64,000 nt of DNA, taken from the NCBI GenBank assembly GCA_949299195.1, contig CASFZN010000020.1:48903-112902 (forward strand). Reading direction: 5' to 3'. Below are positions 3,598 through 54,656 of the stretch, piece after piece. A program made the position numbers and the translations under genes. The notes under the pieces were generated by a model that saw nothing but the letters and a program-made list of their open reading frames with translations, did not search any database and was not told the DNA's origin. This stretch comes from an uncultured bacterium. GTDB taxonomy: Bacteria; Bacillota_I; Bacilli_A; RFN20; CAG-826. Numbering within the stretch: the first letter of the stretch is position 1; each line of letters opens with the position of its first letter.

Positions 3598-3657
3598 GAA
3601 TAAAATAGAATAAGACTATTAATTTTTATATAATTATTAAGTTGTTTTAAATAAATT

Positions 3658-3692
3658 AAATTCATTTCTCTTTTATAACGAGAAATGAATTT
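3658..3692 (+). terminator. 13-bp hairpin between glgB and glgP (terminator or mRNA-stabilising stem)
   Basis: AAATTCATTTCTC (3658-3670) pairs with GAGAAATGAATTT (3680-3692); 9-nt loop. Confidence 0.5.
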
Positions 3693-3734
3693 ATTATTTA
3701 TATAAAAGAAAAGAAAAAAGAAGAAGGAGAAAAT

Positions 3735-12216: not shown

Positions 12217-12221
12217 AATTT

Positions 12222-15456: not shown

Positions 15457-15894
15457 ATGTTTATCGGAAGCTATGATTACACTATCGATTCAAAATCTAG
15501 ATTAGTTATTCCATCCAAATTCAGAAATGAAATTGGTAACGAAACTAATGTTTATTTAACTAGAGGTTTTGATGGTTGTATCTCAATTTATAAAGAATCC
15601 GATTTCCAATCCTTTATCCTAAGGTATCAAGCCCACAGTTATGAAAAAAGTGAAGTTCGTCAAGCTCTTCGTAGTTTCTTAGATTCTGTGGTTCAAATTA
15701 CAATCGATTCCCAAGGAAGAATTCTTATTCCAACTAAAGTATTAGAAAAGTATAAGATCAAATCCAAGGTTCATATTCTAGGAGCCATTGACCATTTCGA
15801 AATTTGGGACAATGAAATCTGGAATAAACAAGAAGACGAAATCGATTCTAAATTTGAATTAAATGCCGAGAAGATATTCAAAAATGAAGAGTAA
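15457..15894 (+). CDS. mraZ: Division/cell-wall cluster repressor MraZ
   Basis: Two AbrB-like repeats: IDSKSRLVIP and IDSQGRILIP...DHFEIW. Confidence 0.93.
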   Translation: MFIGSYDYTIDSKSRLVIPSKFRNEIGNETNVYLTRGFDGCISIYKESDFQSFILRYQAHSYEKSEVRQALRSFLDSVVQITIDSQGRILIPTKVLEKYKIKSKVHILGAIDHFEIWDNEIWNKQEDEIDSKFELNAEKIFKNEE

Positions 15895-16825
15895 TGAGCA
15901 TTATTCAGTCCTTCTAAAAGAATCAATCGAAGGATTAGAAATTAAAAAGGATGGTATCTATGTCGATATGACCTTAGGAAGAGGCGGCCATAGTGAAGAA
16001 ATCCTTAAAAGGTTAGATAAAAATGGAAGACTATATTGTTTCGATCAAGATAAAGAAGCGATTGAATATTCCTATGAAAGATTAAAAAAAGTTAGTGATA
16101 ACTTTGAAATAATCTATTCTAACTTCAAAAATGTAAAAGAAGAACTTCATAAAAGACACGTTGATAAAGTCGATGGCTTCTTATTCGATTTAGGTGTCTC
16201 ATCTCCTCAGTTTGATGAAGATTATCGCGGTTTCTCTTATCGATACGATTCAACACTTGATATGAGAATGAATCTAAATAATAAGTTAAGCGCTAAAGAA
16301 GTTATCAACACCTATTCTTTAAATGATTTAGTTAAAATCTTTAAAGAATATGGAGAAGAAAAATACTCATATAGTATTGCTAAAAAGATTGTAGAAACTC
16401 GAAAAGTAAAAGAGATTAACACTACATTTGAATTAGTAGACCTAATAAAAGCTTCAATTCCGGCAAAAGAACTTTATAAGGACAAACATCCTGCTAAAAG
16501 AATCTTCCAAGCATTAAGAATTGAAGTTAATGATGAGTTAAATGTCTTAAAAATCGCACTTAATGATTCGCTATCGATGTTAAATAAAAACGGAAGAATC
16601 GTAGTCATCTCCTTCCATTCCTTAGAAGATAGAATCGTTAAAGAAATCTTTAAATCCGTCAGTGTTATTAAAGGAAATAGAAATAACGATTATATCCTTC
16701 CTAAAGATATGAAAGAAGCTGATTATGAATTAGTTAATAAAAAAGTAATTCTTCCTAGTAATGAAGAAATCGAAGAAAATCATCGAAGTAAAAGTGCCAA
16801 ACTTAGAATCTTAAAAAGAAAATAA
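15884..16825 (+). CDS. rsmH: 16S rRNA m4C1402 methyltransferase
   Basis: HYSVLL, VDMTLGRGGHS, DLGVSSPQ, FQALRIEVNDEL and ISFHSLEDR motifs; likely start ATG 15884. Confidence 0.97.
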   Translation: MKSNEHYSVLLKESIEGLEIKKDGIYVDMTLGRGGHSEEILKRLDKNGRLYCFDQDKEAIEYSYERLKKVSDNFEIIYSNFKNVKEELHKRHVDKVDGFLFDLGVSSPQFDEDYRGFSYRYDSTLDMRMNLNNKLSAKEVINTYSLNDLVKIFKEYGEEKYSYSIAKKIVETRKVKEINTTFELVDLIKASIPAKELYKDKHPAKRIFQALRIEVNDELNVLKIALNDSLSMLNKNGRIVVISFHSLEDRIVKEIFKSVSVIKGNRNNDYILPKDMKEADYELVNKKVILPSNEEIEENHRSKSAKLRILKRK

Positions 16826-16888: not shown

Positions 16889-17104
16889 ATGGAAATGAAA
16901 GATAAAATTTATAGAACAAATCATAAAAAAGGTTATTACTATTTAAAGAAAATTGGTCTTTATACCTCAATTGCTATTGGAGTTTCAGTTTTATTTGCAA
17001 TTCCTGTTTCTATTGTTAAAAGTTTAGTTAGAGTTGAACCAATTAGTGAAACTATTTCTAACCCAACTTTAGAAGATAAAGAAGTAGGAACTTTAGAATT
17101 CTAA
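16889..17104 (+). CDS. Small bitopic membrane protein at the ftsL position
   Basis: AGGAG RBS; basic N-terminus and a single hydrophobic segment IGLYTSIAIGVSVLFAIPVSIV. Confidence 0.65.
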   Translation: MEMKDKIYRTNHKKGYYYLKKIGLYTSIAIGVSVLFAIPVSIVKSLVRVEPISETISNPTLEDKEVGTLEF

Positions 17105-17332
17105 TTTTCTTTTCTTGTTAATTTAAAAATTAATTCTTTTAGAATCCTTAATATATAATTTCCCCCTTTAAATAAAGAGTCGCTAAAATAAAGTAGTTCG
17201 CGACTTTTTATTTTTATATCTTTTTATATATTTTTAAATTCAAAAATACCGATAACTACTATAAGTAATATATTACTTATAAAGTGTTATATTTCATTGT
17301 TTTTTATTCATTTTCATATTAAAATTATCAAT

Positions 17333-18571
17333 ATGGATAAAACTGTAGCTGCAATTGAGATAAAAAATAGTAATTTTAAATTATTAATTGGATATCTTTT
17401 TGAAAATAAGATCAATGTTTTATATAAAAAGACCTATCCTTTAAGAATTTCTAATAAAGATGGGGATATTTATGATTTAAATTCTTTAAGTGAAGACTTA
17501 AAACAAATAAAAAATATCTCTGACCCTAAAAAAAGATTAAGAGTTGATATCAATGAGGTAGTTTTGGCGCTCCCTCCTTTTGGACTTGAAGTATATGAAG
17601 CTAGTAAAACAACTTCAACTGTTGATATCGATGCTAAAATCAATAAAACTGATATCTCTAACTGTTTAAATATGTTTAAAAAGTTATCATATGATACTAC
17701 TAATTCATCAATAGTTGATATTGTTCCTTTTGCTTTTAGTGTCGATGATAATCGTACATTTTTTACTCCACCTTTAGGAGAAACTTCTAAATCCTTAATG
17801 ATTAACGCTCATATTTATATGATGCCTACTAGAATCGTTGATTCTTTTAAAAAAGCAATTAAAAATGCTGGATTAGAAGTAAGTAGAGTGGTTATTGAAC
17901 CTTTAGGCGTTAATTCATTACTCAATTTAAATAAGATTGAATACGATAACTATTTACTCGTTGATTATAATAAAGACAATACTGTTGTTTCATTTTTAGG
18001 TAATAACCGTTTATATGCTTCAAAATTCTTCTCGGTTGGTGGCAACGAAATTACTAAATCAATTGCAAATTCCTTTGAAATTTCAATGGATAAAGCTGAA
18101 GAAATTAAGTGTTTATATGGCCTTGATTTAAGAGAAACTGCTTTTAATGCGCCAATATTAAGTGTTATTGGAGAAGATAATGTTTCCCGTAAACACAACA
18201 TTAAAGAATTAAGAGAAATCATTGAACAAAATCTTGTTCAATGGAATGTTTTATTTTTAAACTGCATCAATACTCTTTTATATGATTATGGTGATTTAAA
18301 AGAATCAATTCCAATTGTTTTTACGGGCGATGCAACACTTTTAAACGGATTTAAAGATTTTATCTATAAAAATTATCCTAATAACGATGTTAGATTCTAT
18401 AGTAATGATTCAATTGGTGCTTTAAAACCTGGGGATGTAAATTTACTTGGAAGTGTCGCTTTTGTTTCAACCTATAAAGGTAGTTTAGAAGATGAAGTAA
18501 GAGTTGAAATTAAACACGTCTCTAGAAAGAAAGAAAAAGAAATCTATAGAGAAGATGAAGATGAATTATAA
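17333..18571 (+). CDS. ftsA: Divergent cell division protein FtsA
   Basis: Directly upstream of ftsZ; retains GGNEITKSIA...AEEIK.LYG and FSVDD; likely start ATG 17333. Confidence 0.8.
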   Translation: MDKTVAAIEIKNSNFKLLIGYLFENKINVLYKKTYPLRISNKDGDIYDLNSLSEDLKQIKNISDPKKRLRVDINEVVLALPPFGLEVYEASKTTSTVDIDAKINKTDISNCLNMFKKLSYDTTNSSIVDIVPFAFSVDDNRTFFTPPLGETSKSLMINAHIYMMPTRIVDSFKKAIKNAGLEVSRVVIEPLGVNSLLNLNKIEYDNYLLVDYNKDNTVVSFLGNNRLYASKFFSVGGNEITKSIANSFEISMDKAEEIKCLYGLDLRETAFNAPILSVIGEDNVSRKHNIKELREIIEQNLVQWNVLFLNCINTLLYDYGDLKESIPIVFTGDATLLNGFKDFIYKNYPNNDVRFYSNDSIGALKPGDVNLLGSVAFVSTYKGSLEDEVRVEIKHVSRKKEKEIYREDEDEL

Positions 18572-18650
18572 AATATAAAAAATATACGATATTATTCGTT
18601 AAATATAATTAAAGTAGAAAAAATAATAAGTAATAAGGAAGGGTAAAAAT

Positions 18651-19814
18651 ATGAACGTACATGAATTAGATGGATTTGAACCTGTAGCCCGAATTGTAGT
18701 TATTGGAGTTGGTGGAGCTGGAAATAACGCAATTAATAGAATGATCGATGAAGAAATTAGAAACGTTGAATTCTATGTTGCTAATACCGATAAACAAGCT
18801 TTATCTTTATCAAATGCTCCTAATAGAATCATTTTAGGCGAAGATGTTACTGGTGGACTTGGTGCAGGTGGTGATCCAGAAACCGGAAGAAATGCTGCTG
18901 AAGCTAGTGCTGAAGATATTAGAGAAATTGTTAGAGGTGCTAACATGGTCTTTATTGCAGCTGGAATGGGTGGAGGAACCGGTACTGGTGCTACTCCAGT
19001 TATTTCTAGAATCGCAAGAGAAGAAGGTGCTTTAACTGTTGCTATTGTTACTCGTCCATTTACTTTTGAAGGTAAAAAGAAGGTTGAATCTTCAATTCAA
19101 GGTTTAAATGATTTAAGAGCTGTTTGTGACTCTTTAATCGTTGTTAGTAATGATAAATTGTTATTAAGTAGCGGAAATCTTCCTATTGGAGAAGCTTTCT
19201 CCTTAGCAGATGGAGTTTTAACTCAATCAGTTAAAACTGTTACTGATTTAATTTTAATGCCTTCATTTATTAACTTAGATTTTGCTGATGTTAAAGCTAC
19301 TTTAAAAGATAGTGGCGTCGCTTTAATTGGATTTGGAAGTGGAAAAGGACCAAATAATGCAATTGATGCTGCTGATAGTGCACTTTCTTGTCCGTTAATT
19401 GAACAATCAATTGAAGGCGCAAGAAAAGCAATTTGTCATATTACCTGCGGTCCAAAAGTATCCTTACTTGATTGCCAAACCTGTGTAGATCATATGGTTT
19501 ATAGCTGTGGTGGTAATTTAGATTTAAAATTTGGAATTTCTGTTAATGACCAATTAGGTGATGAAATTTTAGTTTCAATTATTGCAGGTGATTTCAATAC
19601 TGAATTTGATTTCTCAGTTGCTCCTGGAACAAAACTTGATTTAACTGCATTAAGAGAAGAAAAGAGCCGTATGCAACAAGCATATTTTGAGAAAAATGTT
19701 GAACAATCTCGCTTAATGGAAGAAGAAATGCAATCAAGAATTGAAAAACAAAATTCCTTAAATAGTGAAGAAAATTCAATTATTCCAGATTTCTTAAAAG
19801 ATGATTTTGAATAA
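18651..19814 (+). CDS. ftsZ: Cell division protein FtsZ
   Basis: GVGGAGNNA, GMGGGTGTGA, INLDFADV and C-terminal IPDFL motifs. Confidence 0.98.
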   Translation: MNVHELDGFEPVARIVVIGVGGAGNNAINRMIDEEIRNVEFYVANTDKQALSLSNAPNRIILGEDVTGGLGAGGDPETGRNAAEASAEDIREIVRGANMVFIAAGMGGGTGTGATPVISRIAREEGALTVAIVTRPFTFEGKKKVESSIQGLNDLRAVCDSLIVVSNDKLLLSSGNLPIGEAFSLADGVLTQSVKTVTDLILMPSFINLDFADVKATLKDSGVALIGFGSGKGPNNAIDAADSALSCPLIEQSIEGARKAICHITCGPKVSLLDCQTCVDHMVYSCGGNLDLKFGISVNDQLGDEILVSIIAGDFNTEFDFSVAPGTKLDLTALREEKSRMQQAYFEKNVEQSRLMEEEMQSRIEKQNSLNSEENSIIPDFLKDDFE

Positions 19815-19893
19815 AATAAATTTAATACTATAATATTTTTAACCTCCTGCGTTTGGATTATTTTTAAAAAACTTAATTCCAAGCCTGACATAA

Positions 19894-19943
19894 AAGAAAA
19901 GATCCCTTTCTTAGTTATATTAACTAGATTGGGATCTTTTCTT
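19894..19943. terminator. Bidirectional terminator between ftsZ and the convergent membrane-protein gene
   Basis: AAGAAAAGATCCC / GGGATCTTTTCTT 13-bp stem with an inner TAGTTA/TAACTA stem. Confidence 0.7.
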
Positions 19944-20012
19944 ATTATTTAGAAGATTTTATGAACAACTACAAAACGTTTTTACCTTAATTGACTATAT
20001 TATAACTAGAAA

Positions 20013-20450
20013 CTATCTTAAATATGTAGTCTTTTTTACGGTTATTATAAAAGTAAGATAAGAAGTCATCTCAGTTATTAATAATAATCCAATAGTTAAA
20101 AATAAAAGACCTAACTTATTATCAAGTAATATAAATTGTTCAATTATTCCAATAATTAAAGAAGCAATACCTAAAATAAGTAAAATAATTACTACTATAA
20201 AGGCAAATCTATTGATAGACCCATCTCTTTCGAATGCTAAATCATAAAGCATTGAATTATTCTTTTTTAAGGTAATAAAAGAAACAATAGAAGTTAATAA
20301 ATTAAGTAAAAATGAAACTAAGATAGCTATTAAAACAATTAAGCTATCGGTTTCAATTTTACTTAAATTTAAATACATAAAATAAATATAAAATGGGATA
20401 GGAATAAGATTGATAATTGCACTTATTATCCTAAAAGGTTTAAGGTTCAT
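20013..20450 (-). CDS. Hypothetical 4-TM membrane protein
   Basis: Four hydrophobic segments; no family recognised; resembles 32622..33083. Confidence 0.7.
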   Translation of the reverse strand: MNLKPFRIISAIINLIPIPFYIYFMYLNLSKIETDSLIVLIAILVSFLLNLLTSIVSFITLKKNNSMLYDLAFERDGSINRFAFIVVIILLILGIASLIIGIIEQFILLDNKLGLLFLTIGLLLITEMTSYLTFIITVKKTTYLR

Positions 20451-20501
20451 GACTACTATTTTGTTTACTAGATAACTACTAAGTTTTTATTAAATTATCT
20501 A

Positions 20502-21824
20502 CTAATTCTCCGTTTTTTTAATTGTTTCTGCTTTAAATAAATAAAGTGGCTCTTTAACTTTAATAGATTTATTTTCAATAACATAAACCTTATTAGTTAA
20601 ATAATCAATATAGGCTCCATCTTCTAATTCTTCGGATTTAATAATTGAAGAAGTAAGAGAAGAAGAAAGGTTAAAGAGTCCATACATTTTACTACCATCT
20701 TTAAAGTTATTTCTAATAACTATGTTATTACCTTTACTAGGTAAAATAGAAGAAGTTAAAACATCTAAATTAAATTCTTCTTTTTTAAAGTTAATTACTT
20801 TTTTAACATAATTAAACCATTCTGTATCTATAGTATCATCCATTAAATCTTTAGTAAAAAGTGAAAGATTATGATCAGCCTTAGTTTCAAGTCCATTATA
20901 TATAAACATTGGACCTTTCATAAAGACTGGAAGTGCTAAAAGAGTATGTAATAATCTTTCATTTTTAGTATATTCAATTAAACGAGGTTGATCGTGATTT
21001 TCTAATCCTCTAATCCTTAGATTAGAGGATGGATTATAAGCTTCTTCGTATTCTAGTAATACCTTATAAATATCTAAATATGAAGAATCTTTCTTAATTA
21101 AATAATCTTTTAAATATTCAAAGTTATTATATGTATATAATAAATCAAATCCTAATTCATATAATTCAGCATCACTTAAAGCATTAAATCCTAAACTACG
21201 AGTATAGGTAGCAAAATTAGGGTGGATTGATTCGGCTAATAAAATAGTATCAGGATGATATTTATCTAACATTTCTTTTAACTTTATATAAAAAGAAGAA
21301 GGTATTAAACTAGCAACATCAAAACGATATCCATCAACTCCTAAATCGCTATAATATTTAATAACATCTACTAAATAATCTATTAATTCCGGATTAGAAT
21401 AATCTAAATCATAGACATCACTCCAATCTCCGACCTTATTAGCCATCTTTCCTTCATTATTTTTATACATCCATTCAGGATGATTTTTAACAATTTCACT
21501 ATCTCTAGATGTATGATTAAAAACGATATCAATCATTAATTTCATATTTTTAGAATGAGTTTCATTAATTAATTCTTTAAAGTCTTCTAAAGTACCTAAT
21601 TCACTATTAATTTCATAATAATTCTTAATTGAATATGGACATCCTAAATCTCCTTTTTTTCCATAACTTCCAATAGTGTTAATAGGTAATAGATAAACAA
21701 TATCTACTTTTAATTCATCTTTTAGATAATCTAATTTTTTAGTGACTGCTTTAAAAGTTCCTTCTTTAGAGAAGTTTCTCACATAAACTTGATAAATAAT
21801 CTTAGTTTTTAATTCGTTCTTCAT
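20502..21824 (-). CDS. Cytoplasmic GH13 alpha-amylase-family enzyme
   Basis: IYQVYVRNF, DIVFNHTS, DGYRFDVA (nucleophile), LLAES (acid/base) and LENHDQPR motifs; no signal peptide. Confidence 0.9.
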   Translation of the reverse strand: MKNELKTKIIYQVYVRNFSKEGTFKAVTKKLDYLKDELKVDIVYLLPINTIGSYGKKGDLGCPYSIKNYYEINSELGTLEDFKELINETHSKNMKLMIDIVFNHTSRDSEIVKNHPEWMYKNNEGKMANKVGDWSDVYDLDYSNPELIDYLVDVIKYYSDLGVDGYRFDVASLIPSSFYIKLKEMLDKYHPDTILLAESIHPNFATYTRSLGFNALSDAELYELGFDLLYTYNNFEYLKDYLIKKDSSYLDIYKVLLEYEEAYNPSSNLRIRGLENHDQPRLIEYTKNERLLHTLLALPVFMKGPMFIYNGLETKADHNLSLFTKDLMDDTIDTEWFNYVKKVINFKKEEFNLDVLTSSILPSKGNNIVIRNNFKDGSKMYGLFNLSSSLTSSIIKSEELEDGAYIDYLTNKVYVIENKSIKVKEPLYLFKAETIKKTEN

Positions 21825-21876
21825 ATGTAATAATTTTATACAAATTTATCAAATTTTCAATTATAATATTTATCTA

Positions 21877-23400
21877 ATGAAAGAGAGTGGAATCTTATTA
21901 CATATCACCTCATTACCTAGTAAATATGGAATTGGAACACTTGGCAAAGAGTGTATAAAATTCATCGATTATATCGCTGAATGTGGTTTTTCTTATTGGG
22001 AAATATTACCGCTTGAAGATACTGGTTTTCCAAATTCTCCATTTTTAATTAAAAGTCCTTTTGGACATAATTCTTTATTAATTGATTTTGAAGAGTTAAT
22101 TGAAGAAGGATTACTTTCTAGTCGAGATTTAACTGGAATTGATTTTGGGTCTAATCCTCGTCAGGTAGATTTTTCAAAATTATTTAATACTAAAGAAGCA
22201 ATATTAAAAAAAGCCTATAAACGATTTGATAAAGAGAATATTGAATTTATTAATTTTAAACAAAACAATAAACATCTATATAATTATTGTTTATATAAAA
22301 CTATTAAAGATCATAACTATCATAAAGCGTGGTTTGATTTTGCTCTTGAAGATAGGTATTATTCTAGCGAAGTCAAAGAACACTATGAAAGACATTATAG
22401 TGATGAAATAGATTTCCATCAGTTTTTAGAATTTATCTTTAAAAAGCAGTGGGATAAGATACATAATTACGCTAAAAGTAAAAACATTGAAATAGTAGGA
22501 GATTTACCTCACTTTTTAGGATATGATAGCGATGCTGTTTATTTTGAACCAGAACTCTTTATGGTTGATAAAAGAAATTTAATTACTTTTGTTGCGGGTT
22601 TCCCACCAGATAACTTTAAACCTCAAGGTCAAAAATGGGGATATCCATTATATGATTGGGATTATATGAAACTTAATAACTATAAATGGTGGAAAGAAAG
22701 AATAGGAGCCTCTTTTCAATATTACGATAGATTAAAACTTAATCATTTCCGTGGTTTTTTAGAAGTTTATGCGATTCCTTTTAGATCTAAATCTGCTAAA
22801 AGAGGAAAATATATTCAAGGGCCAGGATTAGAATTTATTGAAGAAATTAAAACAACAAGTGAAAACTTAATCGCAAGTGATATTGGAACCAGTAGTGAAA
22901 AGGTAAATTCTTTTGTTAAAAAAACCAATCTTCCTTCAATGAAGATTTTAATTCCTACTTTATTTGATAATGAAAAGGTTAAATGTATTCCTAGCGAAAT
23001 CGAAACAAATTGTTACTATTATTTAGGAAATCATAATAATACTCCAATAAAAACTAAACTCGAAGGATTAAATGAAGAAGAGAAAGAGAAGTTATTAATC
23101 TTTATAAAGGAAGAATGTCTAAAGTTAAATGTTCCTTATTTTGAAGATGATGTAATAACTCTTTATGATGTTTCTAAAAAGATTACTGAATTAATGTTTG
23201 CTTCTAATGCGGAACATTTAACTCTAACATTAATTGATCTTTTATATAAAGGAGATGAAGCTAGAATGAATCATCCAGGTACTATTGAAGGTAACTGGGA
23301 AGCTAGGTTTTTAGGGTTTGAATTTAGCGATTCTCTTAAAAATAGACTCGTTGATTTAAATACTAAATATAATCGTTTTAATAAAAGAAACATTAAGTAG
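21877..23400 (+). CDS. 4-alpha-glucanotransferase (GH77) paralogue, predicted catalytically inactive
   Basis: Full-length MalQ fold (ESGILLHITSLP, AGFPPDNF..GQKWGYPLYDW), but the catalytic motifs read LNHFRG, IASDIG and GNHNN. Confidence 0.85.
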   Translation: MKESGILLHITSLPSKYGIGTLGKECIKFIDYIAECGFSYWEILPLEDTGFPNSPFLIKSPFGHNSLLIDFEELIEEGLLSSRDLTGIDFGSNPRQVDFSKLFNTKEAILKKAYKRFDKENIEFINFKQNNKHLYNYCLYKTIKDHNYHKAWFDFALEDRYYSSEVKEHYERHYSDEIDFHQFLEFIFKKQWDKIHNYAKSKNIEIVGDLPHFLGYDSDAVYFEPELFMVDKRNLITFVAGFPPDNFKPQGQKWGYPLYDWDYMKLNNYKWWKERIGASFQYYDRLKLNHFRGFLEVYAIPFRSKSAKRGKYIQGPGLEFIEEIKTTSENLIASDIGTSSEKVNSFVKKTNLPSMKILIPTLFDNEKVKCIPSEIETNCYYYLGNHNNTPIKTKLEGLNEEEKEKLLIFIKEECLKLNVPYFEDDVITLYDVSKKITELMFASNAEHLTLTLIDLLYKGDEARMNHPGTIEGNWEARFLGFEFSDSLKNRLVDLNTKYNRFNKRNIK

Positions 23401-23478
23401 AAACATAAAAATTTTTAACTAATTCCAAATTAGGTAAAAATTTACTTAATTTAACCAAAATTGTTGTCAATAAAAAAT

Positions 23479-23502
23479 AAAGCCATAATTATGGCTTTTT
23501 TT
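23479..23502 (+). terminator. Terminator after the malQ-like gene
   Basis: AAAGCCAT-AATT-ATGGCTTT followed by a T run. Confidence 0.65.
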
Positions 23503-23645
23503 AAAACATTATGAAAAGTTAAAATAATACGACAACCACCGACATTATTTTAATTTGATGTAAAAATTGACCCAAATTTTTTAAAATTTTTTCAAATTTT
23601 TGCAGATTTCATTAATTTTAATGTATCTTCCTTACTTTTTTGTGT

Positions 23646-23687
23646 TTGACACACCAACTTTTCAATTTTATAATGAAAGCGCTTACA
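23646..23687 (+). promoter_or_regulatory. Consensus sigma-A promoter of malQ with an overlapping cre/LacI-family operator
   Basis: TTGACA (23646-23651), 17 nt, TATAAT (23669-23674); TGAAAGCGCTTACA (23674-23687) fits the cre consensus TGWNANCGNTNWCA. Confidence 0.85.
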
Positions 23688-23722
23688 TAAATTAAGCATT
23701 TATTTTATTTAGTGAGAAATTT

Positions 23723-25249
23723 ATGAAAATTAGAGAAAGTGGAATTTTATTACATATCTCATCATTACCAAGTAAATATGGTATTGGTACCTTAGGAAAA
23801 GAAGCTTATAAATTTGTTGATTTTTTAAGTCTTTGTAGATGTAGTGTATGGCAAATCTTACCTCTTAACGTAACAAGTTATGGAGATAGTCCATATCAAT
23901 CTCCATCTAATAATGGCTTAAACTATTACTTTATAGATTTAGAAACCTTAATTGAAAAGAAGTTACTTACTTTAGAAGAAGTAGAATCCATTAATTGGGG
24001 AGATGATGAAGGAAGAGTTGATTACTCCCTTATATATAAAAATAGATTAGGAATCTTAAAGAAAGCCTTTGAAAGATTCAATCGTAACGATGAATCTTTC
24101 AAAAAGTTTATTAAAGATTACCCAATCTATAAAGACTTCGCAGTATTTATGGTATTAAAAGAAATTAATAATTTAACTGCATGGTATACCTGGGAAGAAA
24201 AATACCGTAAATACTCTTTAGAGTTAGAAGAAAAAATTATTAAAGAACATAAAGACTTAGTCTTATTCTATATCTGGACTCAATATGAGTTTAGAAGTGA
24301 ATACGATAAACTTAAAAAGTATGCAAACGATAAAAACATTAAGATTATGGGAGATCTCCCAATCTATGTTGCATTTGATTCACTTGAAGTACGGAAATAT
24401 CCTTCACTTTTTGAACTCGATGAAGAACATTTCCCTAAAAGAGTAGCTGGCTGTCCTCCTGATTGTTTTTCAAAAGATGGTCAATTATGGGGTAATCCTT
24501 TATATAACTGGGCTTATCATAAAGCTACTAACTATAAATGGTGGAATGAAAGAATAAATTATGCCTTATCCTTATTTGATTATTTAAGAATTGATCACTT
24601 TAGAGGATTTAGTGGCTATTATGCAATTCCTTTTAAAGATAAAACTGCTAAAAACGGTACTTGGGTAAAGGGTCCTGGATTTGATTTATTTAAAGATAAG
24701 TTAGATTATCCAATCGTTGCTGAAGATTTAGGAATGATTGATGATGACTTTATTAAATTCTTTAACTCTTGTGGTTATCCAGGAATGAAGATTGTAACTC
24801 AAGCATTCGATGATCCTGATAAAGAAAATATCTGGAGACCATCAAATTATACTTATAATTTCTTCTCATATAGCGGAACTCATGACTCTCAAACTACAAA
24901 ACAATTTATTATAGAAGTATGGCAAGATCCTAAAAGAAAGAAATTATTCTTAACTATTTTAGAAGAAGAATGTAAACACTTTAGAATTCCATTTGTTAAA
25001 ACTTTAAGTGAAGATGATTTAACTTTAAAGATTTGTGAACTTAACTTTGCAAGTGGTTCTAAATGTGCAGTTGTTCCACTTCAAGATTTATTAAAGATTG
25101 GAGCAGAAGGAAGAATGAATTTCCCTTCAACATTATCAACATCTAACTGGTCATGGAGAGTTAAACCAAATTTAATTAAAAAAGAAAAAGAAACTCTTCA
25201 AGACTTACTTACTAGATGGAATGATAATTATGAAAGAGGAGATTATTAA
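23723..25249 (+). CDS. malQ: 4-alpha-glucanotransferase (amylomaltase, GH77); contains one in-frame CGG
   Basis: Intact catalytic triad LRIDHFRG, VAEDLG and GTHDS; GDSPYQSPS and GQLWGNPLY motifs. Confidence 0.95.
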   Translation: MKIRESGILLHISSLPSKYGIGTLGKEAYKFVDFLSLCRCSVWQILPLNVTSYGDSPYQSPSNNGLNYYFIDLETLIEKKLLTLEEVESINWGDDEGRVDYSLIYKNRLGILKKAFERFNRNDESFKKFIKDYPIYKDFAVFMVLKEINNLTAWYTWEEKYRKYSLELEEKIIKEHKDLVLFYIWTQYEFRSEYDKLKKYANDKNIKIMGDLPIYVAFDSLEVRKYPSLFELDEEHFPKRVAGCPPDCFSKDGQLWGNPLYNWAYHKATNYKWWNERINYALSLFDYLRIDHFRGFSGYYAIPFKDKTAKNGTWVKGPGFDLFKDKLDYPIVAEDLGMIDDDFIKFFNSCGYPGMKIVTQAFDDPDKENIWRPSNYTYNFFSYSGTHDSQTTKQFIIEVWQDPKRKKLFLTILEEECKHFRIPFVKTLSEDDLTLKICELNFASGSKCAVVPLQDLLKIGAEGRMNFPSTLSTSNWSWRVKPNLIKKEKETLQDLLTRWNDNYERGDY

Positions 25250-25428
25250 TTAATTTCTTAATTCCTATTTATTAATAGGTATTAAGAAATTGATAATAGA
25301 AAATTTCTTTTCTTTCTTATATATAATATAAAGATAGAAAAGAAATACATATTTAATTACTTTAGGTTATTAAACTCATTTTGAGTTAATAATATAAAAT
25401 TTTCTTAAAATAATTTAGGAGGAATAAA

Positions 25429-26877
25429 ATGAAAAAGAGGAAATTTTTAGCTTTATTAGCTTGCTGCTCGATAGCAGCTGGTACAATGACAGCCTTAAGT
25501 TCATGTAATGGAACTTTTGAAGGGATTTTGTTATGGGGACCAGCAGAACATGCTGAAGTATATACTCAACTTTGGCAACAATTTATCACTGAAAACCCAG
25601 AATATGCTGATATTGAATTCCAATACGGTAACAATGGTGATGCAGGCGCATATGACAATTTAGCTGTTGACCCACAATCTGGTGCTTCAATCTATACTTT
25701 TGCTAATGACCAATTAGCAAATATTAGAAGAATCGGTGCTATCGCTCCAGTTGCTGGTGAAAATGAAGAATGGATTTTAGCTAACCATTCACAATTCTCT
25801 TGTGATGCAGGTAAGATCGATAATACTTATTATGCATATCCAGTTTCTCAAGATAATGGTTTCGTTTTCTGTTATTCAAAAGATGCATTTAGAGATACAG
25901 CAGTTTGGGATGAAACAACTGACTCTATTAGAGCAGATTACACATTTAGAGACTTATTTGCAGCTTTAGATGAAAGAGGAACCCAAGCTGGTCATGAAAA
26001 ATGGGGTAACGGATTAGTTCTTTGGCCATGTGGTTCAGCATGGTATGAAGCTGGTGTCTTCTTTGCAACTGGCGGAGATTATAGTGTTGAATACGACAAA
26101 AGTGGCAACCAAGTTTCAGCAGAATGTTCATTCGGTTATACAGAAAGCGGCGGACAAAAAGATTACACAATCGGTTTAGAAGCTGCTCGTTGTATGGTTA
26201 ACTCTTATACAAATGAAGATGGTACAGTTTCAAGCCACTTTATGTATACTGATGATAATACTCCACCATATAATGATATCGTTTCTCAATATATTACAAA
26301 TGAAACACAACCTTTAGCTGGCATTATTTCTTGGAACAATGGTGATGCATTCTCCAATTGGGGTGATGATTATGATGCAACTATTTTACCAATGTTAGAA
26401 AGTGACACTGTCCAATTAGGTGGAACTGGTAAACAATATAGAATGAAGACATTCGGTGGTTGTAAATTAATGGGTGTTAATCCATATTCTGCATTCGCTA
26501 GAAAGAGTCCAGAAAATTTACAAATGTTACACGATTTAGCTAAATTCATGACTGGTTATGATGCTTCTATGGCTAGATTCGAATCTTCTGGATTAGCTCC
26601 ATCTAATTTAGAAGCTGCTCAAAATGAAGATGTTTTAGCTAGCCCATTCGTTGAAGCATTAAATGCTCAAATGGCTTTAACAGATGAAAATGGAAATGAA
26701 ATTGGCTACCGTGTCCAAGATTCAACTCCAACTAACTTCTGGGATCCAATTGCTGCTTTCGGATTAGGTTTATTCACAAATACTAATGATGGAACAGATA
26801 ATGGTTATGGAAGTGAAGATTCCATTCTTCCAACATTAGAAAACTTACAATCTGATATTGAATCAGCTACAGTATAA
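25429..26877 (+). CDS. Maltodextrin ABC transporter solute-binding lipoprotein
   Basis: AGGAGG RBS; lipobox LSSC; SBP family-1 features (IYTFANDQL, YAYPVSQDNG, FGGCKLMGVN); acidic; context of sugar permeases. Confidence 0.85.
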   Translation: MKKRKFLALLACCSIAAGTMTALSSCNGTFEGILLWGPAEHAEVYTQLWQQFITENPEYADIEFQYGNNGDAGAYDNLAVDPQSGASIYTFANDQLANIRRIGAIAPVAGENEEWILANHSQFSCDAGKIDNTYYAYPVSQDNGFVFCYSKDAFRDTAVWDETTDSIRADYTFRDLFAALDERGTQAGHEKWGNGLVLWPCGSAWYEAGVFFATGGDYSVEYDKSGNQVSAECSFGYTESGGQKDYTIGLEAARCMVNSYTNEDGTVSSHFMYTDDNTPPYNDIVSQYITNETQPLAGIISWNNGDAFSNWGDDYDATILPMLESDTVQLGGTGKQYRMKTFGGCKLMGVNPYSAFARKSPENLQMLHDLAKFMTGYDASMARFESSGLAPSNLEAAQNEDVLASPFVEALNAQMALTDENGNEIGYRVQDSTPTNFWDPIAAFGLGLFTNTNDGTDNGYGSEDSILPTLENLQSDIESATV

Positions 26878-26888
26878 AAATTAACTTT

Positions 26889-26923
26889 AAATCAAGGGGT
26901 TTGTTTTAATAACCCCTTGATTT
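26889..26923 (+). terminator. Intra-operon hairpin after the SBP gene (stabiliser or partial terminator)
   Basis: Perfect 13-bp stem AAATCAAGGGGTT / AACCCCTTGATTT with a weak U tail. Confidence 0.6.
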
Positions 26924-26944
26924 GCTTTATAGTGAGGATTTTTT

Positions 26945-28444
26945 ATGACAGATTTAAACTATTTGGGTTTATCTAAGCCTAGAAAATTAATGTATAGAAC
27001 AAAAAGAGGATTTAGAAATTCCGGAAAAGCTATAAAGAAATTTTTTAGATCGATTCCAACAAAAATTTCTGAAATATTTCATAAATTTATTAGTTCTTTC
27101 TCAGTCGTCGGTGATGCGATGTTATACGGTGATTGGAAAACAAAATTATCATTTATTATTTTCGGTTTCGGAAATATATCTCGCGGGCAACTTTTAAGAG
27201 GCTTCTTGTTCCTTGTTTATGAAATAGTTTTTATTTTATACATGGTTTTCTTCGGTGGAGGATACCTTGCTAAATTTGGCACTTTAGGAACGGTTACTAC
27301 AATCACTGACGAAAACGGTTTCGTTATTCCTGGTGATGATTCTTTCAATATTCTTCTTTATAGTGTTATGACCATTTTAGTCATTGGCTGTACATTATAT
27401 GTTTGGTTCCAATCAATAAAACAAGCTTATAGTGTTCAAGAAATGACTGAAATTAATAAAAAATTATCAAAAGGAAGAGATGATCTTATTAATTTGGGAA
27501 ATAGATATTATCATACTACCCTTTTAGCATTACCTATGTTTGGCCTAGTATGTTTTACTATTATTCCATTAATTTTCATGATCTTCGTCGCTTTTACAAA
27601 CTACAATACTCAACATTTACCACCTGAAAGATTATTCACATGGGTTGGGTTTGAAAACTTTGGAACTGTTTTAAATGGTGGCGGTATTGGTGGTGGCAAT
27701 TCTGCTAGATTTACTTACACCTTCTGGGCTTTATTAGGATGGACCTTACTTTGGGCAGTTCTCGCTACATTTACCAACTTTATTATTGGTATGGTAATTG
27801 CAGTTATCATTAATAAAAAAGGATTAAAATTAAAGAAATTCTGGAGAACAATCTTAGTTATCACTATCGCTGTTCCTCAATTCGTCTCTCTTTTATTAAT
27901 GAACAAAATGTTACAAGATAATGGTATTTACAATCAATTATTAATGGCAATGGGTTTAGAACCAATAGGCTTTTTAACCGATCCATTAATTGCAAAAATA
28001 ACAGTAGTTATTGTCAACCTTTGGATTGGTGTTCCATATACTGTTTTAAGTTCAACTGGTATTTTAATGAATATTCCTGATGATTTATATGAAGCAGCAA
28101 AAATCGATGGTGCTAATCCATATAGAATGTTCACATCTATTACTCTCCCTTATATGTTATTCGTTATGACTCCATCACTTATTACAACATTTGTTGGAAA
28201 TATTAATAACTTTAACATTATTTACTTATTAACAGGTGGTGGACCAAAACTTGATCCTAATATGATGTCAAGCGCTGGGCAAACTGACTTATTAATCACT
28301 TGGTTATATAATTTGACAGTTACTGAACAATCATATGATATGGCTTCTGTTATCGGTATTTTAATCTTTATTATTTGTGCTGTTTTCTCTCTTATTTTCT
28401 ATTCAAGAAGTAACAGCTTGAAAAATGAGGAGGACTTCCAATAA
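26945..28444 (+). CDS. Maltodextrin ABC permease, MalF/MalC-like
   Basis: EAA loop LYEAAKIDGANP; AFTNY, NLWIGVPY and NINNFNIIYLLTGGGP motifs. Confidence 0.9.
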   Translation: MTDLNYLGLSKPRKLMYRTKRGFRNSGKAIKKFFRSIPTKISEIFHKFISSFSVVGDAMLYGDWKTKLSFIIFGFGNISRGQLLRGFLFLVYEIVFILYMVFFGGGYLAKFGTLGTVTTITDENGFVIPGDDSFNILLYSVMTILVIGCTLYVWFQSIKQAYSVQEMTEINKKLSKGRDDLINLGNRYYHTTLLALPMFGLVCFTIIPLIFMIFVAFTNYNTQHLPPERLFTWVGFENFGTVLNGGGIGGGNSARFTYTFWALLGWTLLWAVLATFTNFIIGMVIAVIINKKGLKLKKFWRTILVITIAVPQFVSLLLMNKMLQDNGIYNQLLMAMGLEPIGFLTDPLIAKITVVIVNLWIGVPYTVLSSTGILMNIPDDLYEAAKIDGANPYRMFTSITLPYMLFVMTPSLITTFVGNINNFNIIYLLTGGGPKLDPNMMSSAGQTDLLITWLYNLTVTEQSYDMASVIGILIFIICAVFSLIFYSRSNSLKNEEDFQ

Positions 28445-29316
28445 TGACAATGTCTAGAAAAGTTGGCGTCAGAGCACGCCGTCATATTGTTAATGGTATT
28501 ATTTATATCTTTTTAACTATTCTATCAATCATTTGGATTTTCCCATTCGTTTACATTTTTGTTCAATCGATTAGAGGAGATACAACTGGTATTGCTTTGA
28601 CTTTCTTCCCTGAAGGCTTCAATTATACTTTAAATAATTATGTTAATCTTTTTACTGACCATCTTTATAGCTTTGGAACTTGGTATTTAAATACTTTAAT
28701 TATCGCTTTAATGACAACAGTAGTTCAAACAATTTTAGTTTTGATGACAGCTTATACCTTATCAAGATTAAGATTTAAAGGAAGAAAAGGAATCATGAAA
28801 TTAATGCTTATTTTAGGTATGTTCCCTGGATTCCTTGGCATGATTTGTATTTATAGAATCTTACAAGCAGCCGGCTTACAATCAAGCGTTTTTGGTTTAT
28901 TCCTTGTTTATATTGCTGGATCAGCTATGAATTATTACATCTCTAAGGGCTTCTTTGATACAATTCCTCGTTCACTCGATGAAGCTGCATTAATTGATGG
29001 TGCAAATAGAAATACTGTTTTCTGGAAAATTATTATTCCATTATCAAAGCCGATTGTTGTTTATACGGTTTTAACAGCTTTCTTAGCTCCTTGGGGAGAT
29101 TTCATGATGGCTAGCTACCTTGTTGGTAGAGGCGCACAAACTAGTTATACAGTTGCTATCGGTTTGAGACAATTTGTTCAACCAACCTTAGCAGCAAGCT
29201 ATTTTACTAGATTCTGTGCTGGTGGAATTTTCGTTTCGATTCCAATTGTTATCTTATTCTTCTTCTTACAAAGATATTATGTTGAAGGAGTTACTGGAGG
29301 AGCCGTCAAAGGCTAA
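28444..29316 (+). CDS. Maltodextrin ABC permease, MalG/MalD-like
   Basis: EAA loop KGFFDTIPRSLDEAALIDGA; overlaps the upstream permease stop. Confidence 0.92.
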   Translation: MTMSRKVGVRARRHIVNGIIYIFLTILSIIWIFPFVYIFVQSIRGDTTGIALTFFPEGFNYTLNNYVNLFTDHLYSFGTWYLNTLIIALMTTVVQTILVLMTAYTLSRLRFKGRKGIMKLMLILGMFPGFLGMICIYRILQAAGLQSSVFGLFLVYIAGSAMNYYISKGFFDTIPRSLDEAALIDGANRNTVFWKIIIPLSKPIVVYTVLTAFLAPWGDFMMASYLVGRGAQTSYTVAIGLRQFVQPTLAASYFTRFCAGGIFVSIPIVILFFFLQRYYVEGVTGGAVKG

Positions 29317-29330
29317 TATAGGAGAAATAT

Positions 29331-31862
29331 ATGGCAAATTTACACTTAAAAAACATATATAAAGTTTATCCAAATGGCGCTAAAGCTGTTTCAAACTTTA
29401 ATATGGAAATCAAAGATAAAGAATTTATTGTTTTTGTCGGTCCTTCTGGATGTGGCAAATCAACTACATTACGTATGATCGCTGGCCTTGAAGATATCAC
29501 TGCTGGTGAATTATATATTGGTGATGAACTTGTTAATGATGTCGAACCTAAGGATAGAGATATCGCAATGGTTTTCCAAAACTATGCACTTTATCCTCAT
29601 ATGACTGTTTATGATAATATGGCTTTCGGTCTTAAATTAAGACATGTTCCAAAAGAAGAAATTCATAAAAAAGTCTTATGGGCAGCCGACGTTTTAAAAC
29701 TTACCGAGTATTTAGATAGAAAACCTAGAGCTATGTCTGGTGGTCAAAGACAAAGAGTTGCTTTGGGTAGAGCTATTTTAAGAAGCCCAAAAGTCTTCTT
29801 GCTCGATGAACCTCTTTCCAACCTTGATGCTAAATTAAGAACTGAAATGAGAGCTGAAATTGCTAAGATTCATAACCAATTGCAAACAACTTTCATTTAT
29901 GTTACCCATGACCAAACGGAAGCTATGACTCTTGGAACAAGAGTTGTTGTTATGAAATTAGGTGAAGTACAACAAATTGATACACCTCAAAATCTTTATA
30001 ATTATCCATCAAATAAATTCGTTGCTGGATTTATTGGAACTCCACAAATGAATTTCTTTGAAGCAACATTAAAGAGAAATGGCGATACTGTCGAAATTAT
30101 TTTCGATTATTGTGATAATAAACTCTATGTTCCTTTCGAAGATTTATTAAAAGTCACCCCAGCTTATTTAAATGGTAAAGAACATGTTTGGGTTGGTTTA
30201 AGATGTGAAGATATTTCATTAGAACCTGAAGATATTGCTAAGAGCAAAAATATCATGAAGATAAAAGTTTCTCACTTCGAAGAACTCGGAAATGAAACTT
30301 TAATTTATGGTGATTTAAATATGGGTGGCGATGGTTTCGTTGAATCATCCACTAGAGTTATCGCTAAATCAAATCATGGTTATTTAAATTTAAAACCTGG
30401 AGACGTTGTTGAAGCTGCTTTCAATATGAAGAAAGCACATTTCTTCGATAAGAAGAGTGAAGACACAATCGTTCCACGTGTTCCAAAAGAAAATGTCTTC
30501 GATTGCAGCGTTAAAAACGGACATCTTACATTCTTAAATACAGAGATTACATTACCATCAGCTATTAAATGTAAAGATATCGAAGTCGGACGTTTTATTA
30601 TCCCAACCGATGCAATAAGTTTAACTGATGAAGGTGAATTAAGTGCTAAAGTAACTGGATTTGAAGTAGTTAACGATGTTAAACTTTGCTATTTAAATAT
30701 TAATGGAAGAACATTCTTTGCTATTACTGAAAAAGAATATGAAGTTGGCACAGTTGTAAAATTATCGATTGATTATAAGAAGATTTCTATCTTCGAAAAC
30801 GATAGTGATGAAGCAGCTGTTAAACCACTTTCTACACATGATACTTTCTTAGGTTTATTTACCAATTTAGAAAATAATACTAAAGCTATTAAATCTTTAA
30901 CTAAATTAATAGATGAAATTTCTGAAAATAAAGTTAAAGAAGTTGAAAGAGAAGAATCATTAAAACTTTCAGAATTAGGCTATAATAACTTCTTATATAA
31001 AGAATATAAAGAAGATTATAAAGATGCTCTTGATGCTAATAAAAATGAACTTACCTATAAATTATCAACATTAGATTTAGGTAAAGATGGTAAAAAGAAA
31101 GCAAGAGATGAATATAAAGCAGCTAATGAAAAAGCTAAGGCAGAATATTTAGAAAAAATTAAAGTCTTAGATGCTAAAAAATCTCAAGCTTCTGCTGATA
31201 GTGCTACAAAAGCTGATAGTATCAAAGAAACTTATTCAAAAGAAATCGCTAATTTAAAACAATATTATAAGAATATTGCTAAAGATATTAGTGATGGCGC
31301 AAGCGAACTTAAACCTCTATTTGAAGAAACTAAAGCTGAAAGTGAAGCTACATTAGCTAAAGATATGAGCGAACTTAAGGCTAAGAGAAAAGAAACTTTA
31401 GCTGCTTTACATAATGAACTTAGTAAAGCTAAGACAAGTGATGAAAAAGCTTCAATTAAAGATAAGATCGCTCGTAATAATGATCGTTTCGATAAAGAAG
31501 AAGAACTTGCTGGATTAAAAGCTAAGAGTTTCTATATCGGAATTAATGGTCACTACGTTAAATCTTCATTCGATATTACTAAACGTATTGTTCAAGCATT
31601 CGGTACTGCTTTATTTAGATCTAATTATCGCTATGAAATTTCTCATTACGATTATGTTCGCGTCAATGATGGCGGATTAATCGCTCATGTTGAAGAGATT
31701 TTAGATTATGGTAAAGAAAAATTTGCTAGATGCTTAGTAAATAAAAATGAAATTTATGTTTCTTGTAAAGACGATGTCAAAGTTGGAGATACTTTACATT
31801 TGACATTCAATTTGAATAACATTAGAGTATTCGAGAACAAATTTGATATCAGATTATTCTAA
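29331..31862 (+). CDS. Sugar ABC ATPase MsmX/MalK-like with a long C-terminal extension (extra TOBE-like segments and a coiled coil)
   Basis: GPSGCGKS, MSGGQRQRVALGR, LLDEPLSNLD and VTHDQ motifs; 843 aa versus roughly 370 aa for typical MalK. Confidence 0.92.
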   Translation: MANLHLKNIYKVYPNGAKAVSNFNMEIKDKEFIVFVGPSGCGKSTTLRMIAGLEDITAGELYIGDELVNDVEPKDRDIAMVFQNYALYPHMTVYDNMAFGLKLRHVPKEEIHKKVLWAADVLKLTEYLDRKPRAMSGGQRQRVALGRAILRSPKVFLLDEPLSNLDAKLRTEMRAEIAKIHNQLQTTFIYVTHDQTEAMTLGTRVVVMKLGEVQQIDTPQNLYNYPSNKFVAGFIGTPQMNFFEATLKRNGDTVEIIFDYCDNKLYVPFEDLLKVTPAYLNGKEHVWVGLRCEDISLEPEDIAKSKNIMKIKVSHFEELGNETLIYGDLNMGGDGFVESSTRVIAKSNHGYLNLKPGDVVEAAFNMKKAHFFDKKSEDTIVPRVPKENVFDCSVKNGHLTFLNTEITLPSAIKCKDIEVGRFIIPTDAISLTDEGELSAKVTGFEVVNDVKLCYLNINGRTFFAITEKEYEVGTVVKLSIDYKKISIFENDSDEAAVKPLSTHDTFLGLFTNLENNTKAIKSLTKLIDEISENKVKEVEREESLKLSELGYNNFLYKEYKEDYKDALDANKNELTYKLSTLDLGKDGKKKARDEYKAANEKAKAEYLEKIKVLDAKKSQASADSATKADSIKETYSKEIANLKQYYKNIAKDISDGASELKPLFEETKAESEATLAKDMSELKAKRKETLAALHNELSKAKTSDEKASIKDKIARNNDRFDKEEELAGLKAKSFYIGINGHYVKSSFDITKRIVQAFGTALFRSNYRYEISHYDYVRVNDGGLIAHVEEILDYGKEKFARCLVNKNEIYVSCKDDVKVGDTLHLTFNLNNIRVFENKFDIRLF

Positions 31863-54347: not shown

Positions 54348-54656
54348 ATGTACGCTATAATTTTAACAGGCGGTAAACAATTAAAAGTTGAAGTCGGTCA
54401 AAAAATCTATGTCGAAAAATTAGATGTTGAAGCTGGCAAAGAATTCACTTTTGATAAAGTTTTATTAATCGGCGATAAAACCGTTAAAACTGGAAAACCA
54501 TTTATTGATGGTGCTACCGTAGTTGCTAAAGTTGAAAAACAAGGTTTAGGTAAAAAAATCGATGTCTATAAATACAAGGCAAAAACAAATTATCATAGAT
54601 CTTTAGGCCATAGACAACCTTATACTTGTTTAACAATTACAAGCATTAACGCATAA
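54348..54656 (+). CDS. rplU: 50S ribosomal protein L21
   Basis: [14 protein letters not shown] and GHRQPYT motifs. Confidence 0.97.

Follow-up and report, generated by a model that had tools for sequence, protein, structure and literature searches.

The DNA analysed here, a stretch of 64,000 nucleotides from an uncultured bacterium (contig CASFZN010000020.1 of assembly GCA_949299195.1; hereafter referred to as the window), carries an intact malQ gene of glycoside hydrolase family 77 (GH77) and, upstream of it on the same strand, a full-length GH77 paralogue in which the catalytic residues of the family are replaced. An earlier note on this DNA had proposed that the paralogue is a pseudoenzyme retained by selection, and we followed up this proposal by comparing the gene, its product and its surroundings with those of related bacteria. 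The product, a putative non-catalytic protein, is called the pseudoenzyme below. Catalytic residues of the family carry the numbers of the Thermus aquaticus enzyme and their replacements those of the window protein. The features of the gene are as follows.

21877–23400, plus strand: full-length GH77 pseudoenzyme gene, 507 amino acids (unbroken open reading frame, PF02446, AlphaFold2 model, fold match)
22000–22002, plus strand: E42, at the C-terminal end of barrel strand β2 (strand E40–42 by DSSP of the model)
22735–22755, plus strand: conserved region II, K-L-N-H-F-R-G, with Arg291 replaced by K287 and the nucleophile Asp293 by N289 (codon 22741), from alignments
22870–22887, plus strand: conserved region III, I-A-S-D-I-G, with the acid/base Glu340 replaced by S334 (codon 22876), aligned with IAEDLG
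23026–23040, plus strand: conserved region IV, G-N-H-N-N, with Thr replaced by N385, His394 kept and Asp395 replaced by N387 (codon 23035), aligned with GTHD

The product of the gene, whose 507-codon frame is full-length and unbroken as the earlier note had stated, matched the Pfam family PF02446 (Glyco_hydro_77) over residues 8–478 with 393 bits in a profile search. It also scored 238 bits on TIGR00217, the malQ equivalog model, which is above the cutoff of 205.65. The protein aligned over its whole length with the amylomaltases of Aquifex aeolicus (1tz7; E value, 2e-87) and Streptococcus agalactiae (6m6t; E value, 9e-85), and showed 37% identity to the adjoining MalQ in BLASTP. The placement of individual residues rests on the alignments to 1tz7, 6m6t and the adjoining MalQ, together with a MAFFT alignment of the family. 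In GH77, Asp293 serves as the nucleophile, Glu340 as the acid/base and Asp395 as the stabiliser of the transition state (PMC8875642, PMC7990933, PMC5235332). In the window protein, where LKLNHFRG aligns with the LR(I/L)DHFRG of active amylomaltases, these residues of a 4-α-glucanotransferase (EC 2.4.1.25) are Asn289, Ser334 and Asn387, respectively, at exactly the codons that the earlier note had assigned to them. Arg291, found in 100% of 190 active GH77 proteins and in 2 of the 58 relatives described below, is Lys287. The segments AGFPPDNF and QKWGYPLYDW, which the note had listed as retained for substrate binding, are both present in the translation, and the downstream MalQ, said to keep D/E/D, indeed reads R/D/E/D. 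Canonical double displacement is ruled out because Asp293, Glu340, Arg291 and, in this species, Asp395 have become Asn, Ser, Lys and Asn, and the protein is probably devoid of catalytic activity. Judged by its sequence and predicted fold, it belongs to GH77, yet four of the catalytic features that define the enzyme are missing from it.

A search of 5.8 billion proteins, from which 120 matches were listed, placed the pseudoenzyme in a clade of ~60 sequence clusters (~1,100 sequences) that are 40–63% identical to the window protein. Among P0001–P0060, 58 full-length cluster representatives belong to this clade and were aligned with MAFFT. At position 293 they have Asn (55 members) or Ser (3), and none has Asp. 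Position 340 is occupied by Ser (32), Asn (21), Ala (4) or Asp (1), and position 291 by Lys in 44 members and by E, M, L, V or R in the others. His294 and His394 are kept throughout the clade, and Asp395 is kept in all members except those of the window's own species cluster, to which D395N is confined; all 9 sequence variants of that 90% cluster read GNHNN, so that D395N is a fixed change and not an error. The earlier statement that all three acids are replaced therefore holds for the window's species cluster, and the rest of the clade keeps D395; as to whether the substitutions are conserved in orthologues with a low ratio of non-synonymous to synonymous substitution rates (dN/dS), D293N and E340S/N/A are, and D395N is limited to the window cluster. 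As read from the alignment, the signature of the clade is the loss of the nucleophile, the acid/base and Arg291 with D395 kept, and chance does not account for this pattern. Among the matches listed, those from P0061 onward, 58 in all, have the canonical R/D/E/D, except for the chimera P0061 (see below) and P0096, a fragment of the dead clade.

The metagenome-assembled genomes that encode clade members are labelled Mollicutes bacterium, Bacilli bacterium, Candidatus Onthovivens, uncultured Bacillales and uncultured Mollicutes UMGS238. A scan of genome contigs returned mostly intact MalQs, the clade being represented by L001–L005 among the matches listed, and the species count is accordingly a lower bound. 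Clustering at 50% merges the clade into essentially one representative, P0051. In a neighbour-joining tree with midpoint rooting, which is a rough method, the clade was monophyletic and the adjoining MalQs formed a separate clade with mirrored branching; the mirrored branching of the two clades points to an old duplication followed by joint vertical inheritance. The sub-branch P0006–P0013 encodes proteins of 556 amino acids, ~50 more than the rest (L085, L086 and L087, 10001–11671). Elsewhere in the family, among the best 150 GH77 representatives, the nucleophile is also absent from the unrelated P0123 (M-S-S with HN), P0155 (R-N-H) and P0260 (R-T-H), and loss of catalysis in GH77 may thus have occurred several times. 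P0061, which combines the accessory signature of the clade with an intact triad, was considered as an evolutionary intermediate and rejected, as windowed identity revealed a chimera: its residues 1 to ~250 are 98–100% identical to the clade member P0045 and the remainder is 95–100% identical to a Catenibacterium-type MalQ (P0275). It comes from a 4.5-kb metagenomic contig (locus L090; GCA_019973015.1, contig JAIFIM010005114.1) and is probably an assembly chimera joined at the conserved GQxWGNPLY region.

To evaluate the selection acting on the gene, we calculated dN/dS by the Nei-Gojobori method. L085 and L086 are 99.5% identical and uninformative for this purpose, and better-spaced pairs were used. 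Between L085 and L087, dN/dS was 0.074 for the pseudoenzyme (with a synonymous divergence, dS, of 0.98), 0.153 for MalQ and 0.083 for GH13, the product of a neighbouring gene. Between L081 and L088 the corresponding values were 0.141, 0.204 and 0.150, and the pseudoenzyme was the best conserved of the three at the protein level (73% identity, as compared with 64% for MalQ and 63% for GH13). Between L003 and L089 the values were 0.073 for the pseudoenzyme, taken on the intact part of L003 (459 codons), and 0.052 for MalQ. Within the window's species cluster (the window, L091 and L092), where D395 has been lost in addition, constraint was equally strong: dN/dS was 0.050–0.074 for the pseudoenzyme (34–52 synonymous and 8–19 non-synonymous differences), 0.04–0.10 for MalQ and 0.12–0.16 for GH13. 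The pseudoenzyme is under strong purifying selection, with dN/dS values of 0.05–0.14 that are as low as or lower than those of MalQ and GH13.

These values bear on a first alternative, that the gene is a duplicate of malQ in decay, on its way to becoming a functionless pseudogene. The lost catalytic residues are what one would expect of such a gene, public pipelines would not flag it, and in one relative, L003 (UMGS238), the gene carries a 4-nucleotide frameshifting insertion near codon 27 (L003, 10070–10090) in comparison with L089, to which L003 is 93% identical. An assembly error could explain this insertion, as could a very recent inactivation of the gene, and the remaining frame of L003 still shows the low dN/dS given above. 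The 507-codon frame of the window is intact, and ~60 clusters, diverged to 40% identity, keep both the length and the substitutions. The comparative data refute decay, to which we assign next to no probability. The earlier note had named, as a pattern that would speak for an incipient pseudogene, orthologues with intact triads and selection relaxed in this copy alone; we found the reverse on both counts, and its description of a selected pseudoenzyme stands. The catalytic motifs of the family are gone from a gene that has an intact frame, is conserved across species and is subject to purifying selection, as in pseudoenzymes generally.

Modelled alone, as the earlier note had suggested, the protein gave an AlphaFold2 prediction (from a 46-sequence alignment of the clade) with a mean predicted local distance difference test score of 91.8, a predicted template-modelling score of 0.91 and no disordered segment. 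Foldseek superposed this model on the amylomaltases 1tz7 and 6m6t with template-modelling scores of 0.90–0.94 and a root-mean-square deviation of ~2.3 Å over ~506 columns. The model has the (β/α)8 barrel with the inserted subdomains of GH77 and has no domain C; the GH77 fold is predicted to be fully retained.

To see which parts of the binding cleft have been preserved, we took as a reference the 190 active GH77 proteins, in which 83 positions reach a conservation of 90% or more. The clade keeps 58 of these positions, including the N-terminal G-x-G-x-x-G region, S54-P55 (the 'SPY' motif), the 250s-loop motif PPD.F..GQ.WG (G241, P243, D245, F247, G251, Q252, W254, G255 and P257), H290, H386, R463, N465, P467 and W474. 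The remaining 25 are changed or relaxed. They comprise positions of the catalytic centre (287, 289, 334, 335, 336, 385, 388 and 209), the P353–F360 segment, corresponding to the LPGMK..F stretch that we take to be the acceptor-side lining, which is the most relaxed part, and a group of mainly aromatic positions (W to Y222, W to Y/F312, W to F155 and N to Y256). In the S. agalactiae amylomaltase (SaAM), the glucose at subsite -1 is contacted by H395 and D396, and the sugar at -2 by S56, N460 and the backbone at P462/N463 (PMC7990933). By alignment, the pseudoenzyme counterparts of S56, N460, P462, H395 and D396 are S54, N465, P467, H386 and D/N387, all of which are invariant or nearly so in the clade.

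Several positions have switched to another residue that was then conserved. Position 42, Gln in 99% of active GH77 proteins, is Glu in 57 of the 58 clade members; W is replaced by Y222 in 58 of 58 and T by N385 in 56 of 58, Asn289 is present in 55 of 58, and I to H212 and Y to F213 behave in the same way. Such positions bear the signature of a remodelled site under constraint rather than of decay. Each acid has given way to a polar residue of nearly the same shape (D to N, E to S/N and D to N), and these swaps, together with the near-invariant Asn289, fit retained hydrogen bonding and not drift. They resemble the changes that experimenters make to obtain binding-competent dead enzymes: the D293A/D395N variant of the T. 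aquaticus amylomaltase (TaqAM), designed to be inactive, was crystallised with a 34-glucose cycloamylose across 16 subsites (PMC5235332). The same carboxylates are removed in that variant, and it still binds a long α-glucan over the full length of the cleft (PMC5235332), as we propose for the pseudoenzyme. It differs in being a laboratory mutant with Glu340 and Arg291 intact, whereas the clade has the further conserved changes E42, H212, Y222 and N385.

The same switches bear on a second alternative, in which the protein is still an enzyme, either with relocated or otherwise non-canonical machinery or with a new substrate. A new site could be formed from Glu42, D/E209, Asp395 (where the clade keeps it), His212 and Lys287, or the -1 pocket could have been turned over to anionic sugars, two neutralised carboxylates opening it to glucose-1-phosphate or maltose-1-phosphate. 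PMC10211241, which sets out pseudoenzyme categories in general, recognises among them proteins whose catalytic residues have migrated, and the exchange of Gln for E42, the switches to H212, Y222 and N385 and the retention of D395, H294 and H394 across the clade are all compatible with such a history. This reading has to accommodate the loss of both the nucleophile and the acid/base, and the equally strong selection in the window species, which is without the third acid as well. Moreover, catalytic residues would not be expected to vary as the D209 equivalent (D, E, Q or C) and position 287 (K, E, M, L, V or R) do. We regard continued catalysis as improbable, and give similarly little weight to the related idea that a concerted, conserved rewiring (E42, K287, N289, S/N334, N385, H212 and Y222) gave the protein a pocket for a new ligand or moved its catalytic centre, for which recognition of an anionic sugar (glucose-1-phosphate or maltose-1-phosphate) and glycosynthase-like chemistry are possibilities. 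If true, it would be the first GH77 protein to act other than as a transglycosylase, and would link the flux through MalQ or GlgP to a new activity or signal.

The pseudoenzyme is probably cytoplasmic, because its N-terminus aligns with that of MalQ and it has no leader sequence. Its gene lies in the order FtsA, FtsZ, a small membrane protein (minus strand), a 440-residue GH13 protein (minus), the pseudoenzyme (plus), MalQ (plus) and the transporter genes (binding protein, two permeases and an 843-residue MalK-like ATPase), followed later by a neopullulanase-like GH13 gene. The neighbouring features are as follows; promoter, operator and terminator calls come from consensus scans only.

20502–21824, minus strand: cytoplasmic GH13 α-amylase-family gene, 440 amino acids, divergent from the pseudoenzyme gene (Pfam; four GH13 motifs in the translation)
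23479–23498, no strand assigned: GC-poor palindromic hairpin AAAGCCATAATTATGGCTTT flanked on either side by T/A runs, 3′ of the pseudoenzyme stop codon, likely a bidirectional terminator
23646–23687, plus strand: malQ promoter TTGACA-17-TATAAT (12/12 match to the sigma-70 consensus) at 23646–23674, immediately followed by a cre/LacI-type palindrome TGAAAGCGCTTACA at 23674–23687
23723–25249, plus strand: intact MalQ, GH77, R/D/E/D, 322 bp downstream of the pseudoenzyme gene (Pfam, alignments)
25429–31862, plus strand: maltodextrin-type ATP-binding cassette transporter, with a binding protein, two permeases and the 843-residue MalK-like ATPase (Pfam)

An intact malQ lies at most 2 kb from the pseudoenzyme gene in 12 of 13 non-chimeric loci. 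The block of GH13 (minus), pseudoenzyme, MalQ and transporter recurs in L001, L002, L003, L083–L087, L089, L091 and L092; L081 and L088 have the order pseudoenzyme (plus), GH13 (minus), MalQ (plus); and in L005 the pseudoenzyme gene is followed directly by malQ, with an 18-bp gap, beside pfk-pyk. GH13 adjoins the pseudoenzyme gene in most related loci. MalQ is thus the neighbour of the pseudoenzyme that varies least, and is likely to be its functional partner. Farther away, 16 kb upstream, GlgB (branching enzyme) and GlgP (α-glucan phosphorylase) are encoded at 1699–6146, and no glgA or glgC was seen in the window.

The transporter behaves differently. Over 17001–25416 the DNA of the window and that of L091, two members of one species cluster, is 98.6% identical, and from ~167 nucleotides after malQ the two carry different transporter cassettes (25416–31862 in the window, 13536–21474 in L091), with identities of 30% for the binding protein, 51–62% for the permeases and 50% for MalK, and with an extra 533-residue GH13 protein in L091. 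The window's cassette resembles that of L089 and L003 (68–79%), and the difference looks like a replacement of the cassette by recombination. The transporter is an exchangeable cassette that was swapped without affecting the pseudoenzyme–malQ pair, and not a fixed partner. Between 17001 and 25416, synonymous divergence between the window and L091 was 0.004 for FtsZ, 0.008 for GH13, 0.075 for MalQ and 0.18 for the pseudoenzyme; this unevenness suggests recombination tracts centred on the GH77 pair. The MalK-like ATPase (29331–31862) matches the MalK/UgpC model only over residues 1 to ~375 of 843, and for its C-terminal extension of ~470 residues, a charged coiled-coil-like stretch plus a further domain, there was no family match. 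A length of ~845 residues is found in most related loci, and L088 has an ordinary MalK of 394 residues. A specific coupling of the pseudoenzyme to the long MalK was considered as a candidate; it lost ground because strains have swapped the cassette and because some loci have a MalK of ordinary length or lack the transporter.

Two further statements of the earlier note, that the gene starts divergently with the GH13 gene and that it has a terminator of its own, agree with the features listed: the two start codons are 52 bp apart (120–160 bp in the orthologous intergenic regions), and the hairpin follows the stop codon. A TATAAT hexamer (21862–21867) precedes the ATG of the pseudoenzyme gene by 9 nucleotides, and 21825–21879 shows no Shine-Dalgarno sequence; the mRNA may be leaderless. 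Of 10 related loci, 6 have the cre/LacI-type operator ahead of malQ, and in no case does it precede the pseudoenzyme gene. The note had also remarked that no gene for a LacI-type regulator lies in the locus. None was found among the Pfam-scanned open reading frames of the window of at least 100 amino acids, two short frames at 54348–54970 lying outside the scan, and those at 11167–14633 and 15457–16825 being named only via orthologous loci (PheS/PheT/MraZ/RsmH). Since the malQ promoter nonetheless has the operator, such a regulator would have to be encoded elsewhere, and there is no need to cast the pseudoenzyme as 'the' regulator.

A third alternative is that the pseudoenzyme is a cytoplasmic sensor of maltodextrins which signals to a regulator or to the MalK ATPase rather than serving MalQ, so that uptake or transcription is set by the internal dextrin level. 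It is transcribed apart from the operator-controlled malQ–transporter operon, as expected of a constitutive sensor, the long extension of MalK in most loci could be a docking site, and the scanned frames of the window include no regulator gene. Strains with ~97% identical pseudoenzymes have, however, exchanged the cassette, including a MalK of 50% identity; L088 manages with an ordinary MalK, L004 and L005 have no transporter nearby, and for the regulation of malQ a LacI/CcpA-type operator is already explanation enough. We consider a sensor of this kind unlikely, if still worth bearing in mind.

We favour, with some reserve, the reading that the protein is a non-catalytic, glucan-binding pseudoenzyme that acts as a partner in cytoplasmic maltodextrin metabolism, most probably by modulating MalQ. 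In this scheme, its donor subsites would hold α-1,4-glucan chains (maltodextrins) and leave them uncut, and the protein would be a non-enzymatic participant in maltodextrin metabolism in the cytoplasm. Its most probable mode of action would be to modulate the adjoining MalQ, whether as a heteromeric accessory subunit or as a protein that holds maltodextrin chains and presents them, much as inactive paralogues of the ISA2 type in plants support their active partners. What the comparisons show is that the catalytic residues are lost, the fold and the binding residues are kept, selection is purifying and the pairing with malQ is conserved; glucan binding, lack of activity, the partner and the mode of action are inferred.

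Some observations weigh against this proposal. The acceptor side (P353–F360) and D341 are relaxed, and the cleft is only partly preserved; the conserved switches (E42, H212, Y222 and N385) could mean another ligand or a relocated catalytic residue; and L003 carries the frameshift described above. In L004 the pseudoenzyme gene stands beside pfk-pyk with no malQ within 10 kb. In addition, the gene seems to be a separate transcription unit with its own terminator-like hairpin; since it also has no operator upstream, it is apparently not strictly co-regulated with MalQ.

Comparison with known systems helps to define what is unusual here. With canonical MalQ (T. aquaticus 1CWY, A. aeolicus 1TZ7 and S. 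agalactiae 6M6T), the pseudoenzyme has in common PF02446, the length, the barrel with inserted subdomains, the 250s-loop motif, the -2/-1 contacts and the maltodextrin gene neighbourhood. It differs in having Asn, Ser, Lys and (in this species) Asn in place of Asp293, Glu340, Arg291 and Asp395, and in the 25 of 83 changed or relaxed positions, which include the acceptor-side LPGMK..F stretch. Inactive paralogues of α-glucan enzymes are known from plants: ISA2 is the inactive isoamylase subunit of the ISA1–ISA2 complex and belongs to clan GH-H, and BAM4, BAM9 and LSF1 are non-catalytic paralogues in starch metabolism. Like them, the pseudoenzyme is an inactive-looking paralogue of an α-glucan enzyme that is conserved and co-occurs with an active one, and ISA2 has the clan in common with it; those proteins are eukaryotic, belong to other families (GH13_11, GH14 and a phosphatase) and have demonstrated complexes, whereas a complex of the pseudoenzyme is putative. 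The SLC3 heavy chains 4F2hc and rBAT, membrane-anchored subunits of eukaryotic transporters, have GH13-like ectodomains. They illustrate the reuse of a clan GH-H fold as an ancillary protein without glycosidase chemistry, and differ in being membrane-anchored and eukaryotic and in having no glucan context. The nearest precedent within GH77 is the Borrelia burgdorferi enzyme, whose conserved regions likewise depart from the family at positions that are otherwise invariant; these departures reportedly include Arg291 to Lys, the commonest state in the clade. PMC8875642, citing Godany et al. 2008, describes this protein as one 'with only catalytic triad conserved' and lists a pH optimum of 5.5 for it. 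By that account it is an active enzyme with its D/E/D triad in place, whereas the clade is without the nucleophile and the acid/base and the pseudoenzyme does not conserve the triad.

GH77 has been described as monospecific, and its catalytic residues have been stated to be present in all amylomaltases (PMC7990933, PMC8875642). We found no report of a GH77 pseudoenzyme or an inactive amylomaltase in the full-text literature, in which coverage of subscription journals is limited and an earlier mention is possible. Public records name the clade proteins 4-α-glucanotransferase. In view of the residues described here, the pseudoenzyme should not be so annotated despite passing TIGR00217; the pass over the malQ threshold and the public name imply that metabolic reconstructions count an enzyme that is very probably not one.

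What is new here is that a well-known family has a pseudoenzyme branch whose genomic partnership is conserved. To our knowledge, a bacterial inactive paralogue kept beside the active enzyme in glucan metabolism is rare. The pseudoenzyme–MalQ pair offers a simple system for studying partner roles such as regulation, substrate channelling and maltodextrin buffering, and the clade may represent a natural 'substrate-trap' amylomaltase, whose second-shell changes show how the fold adapts after the removal of its carboxylates. For the biology of the organisms concerned, the clade points to a conserved, apparently non-catalytic GH77 branch under strong selection in reduced-genome gut Bacilli and Mollicutes-like bacteria that live on the breakdown products of starch.

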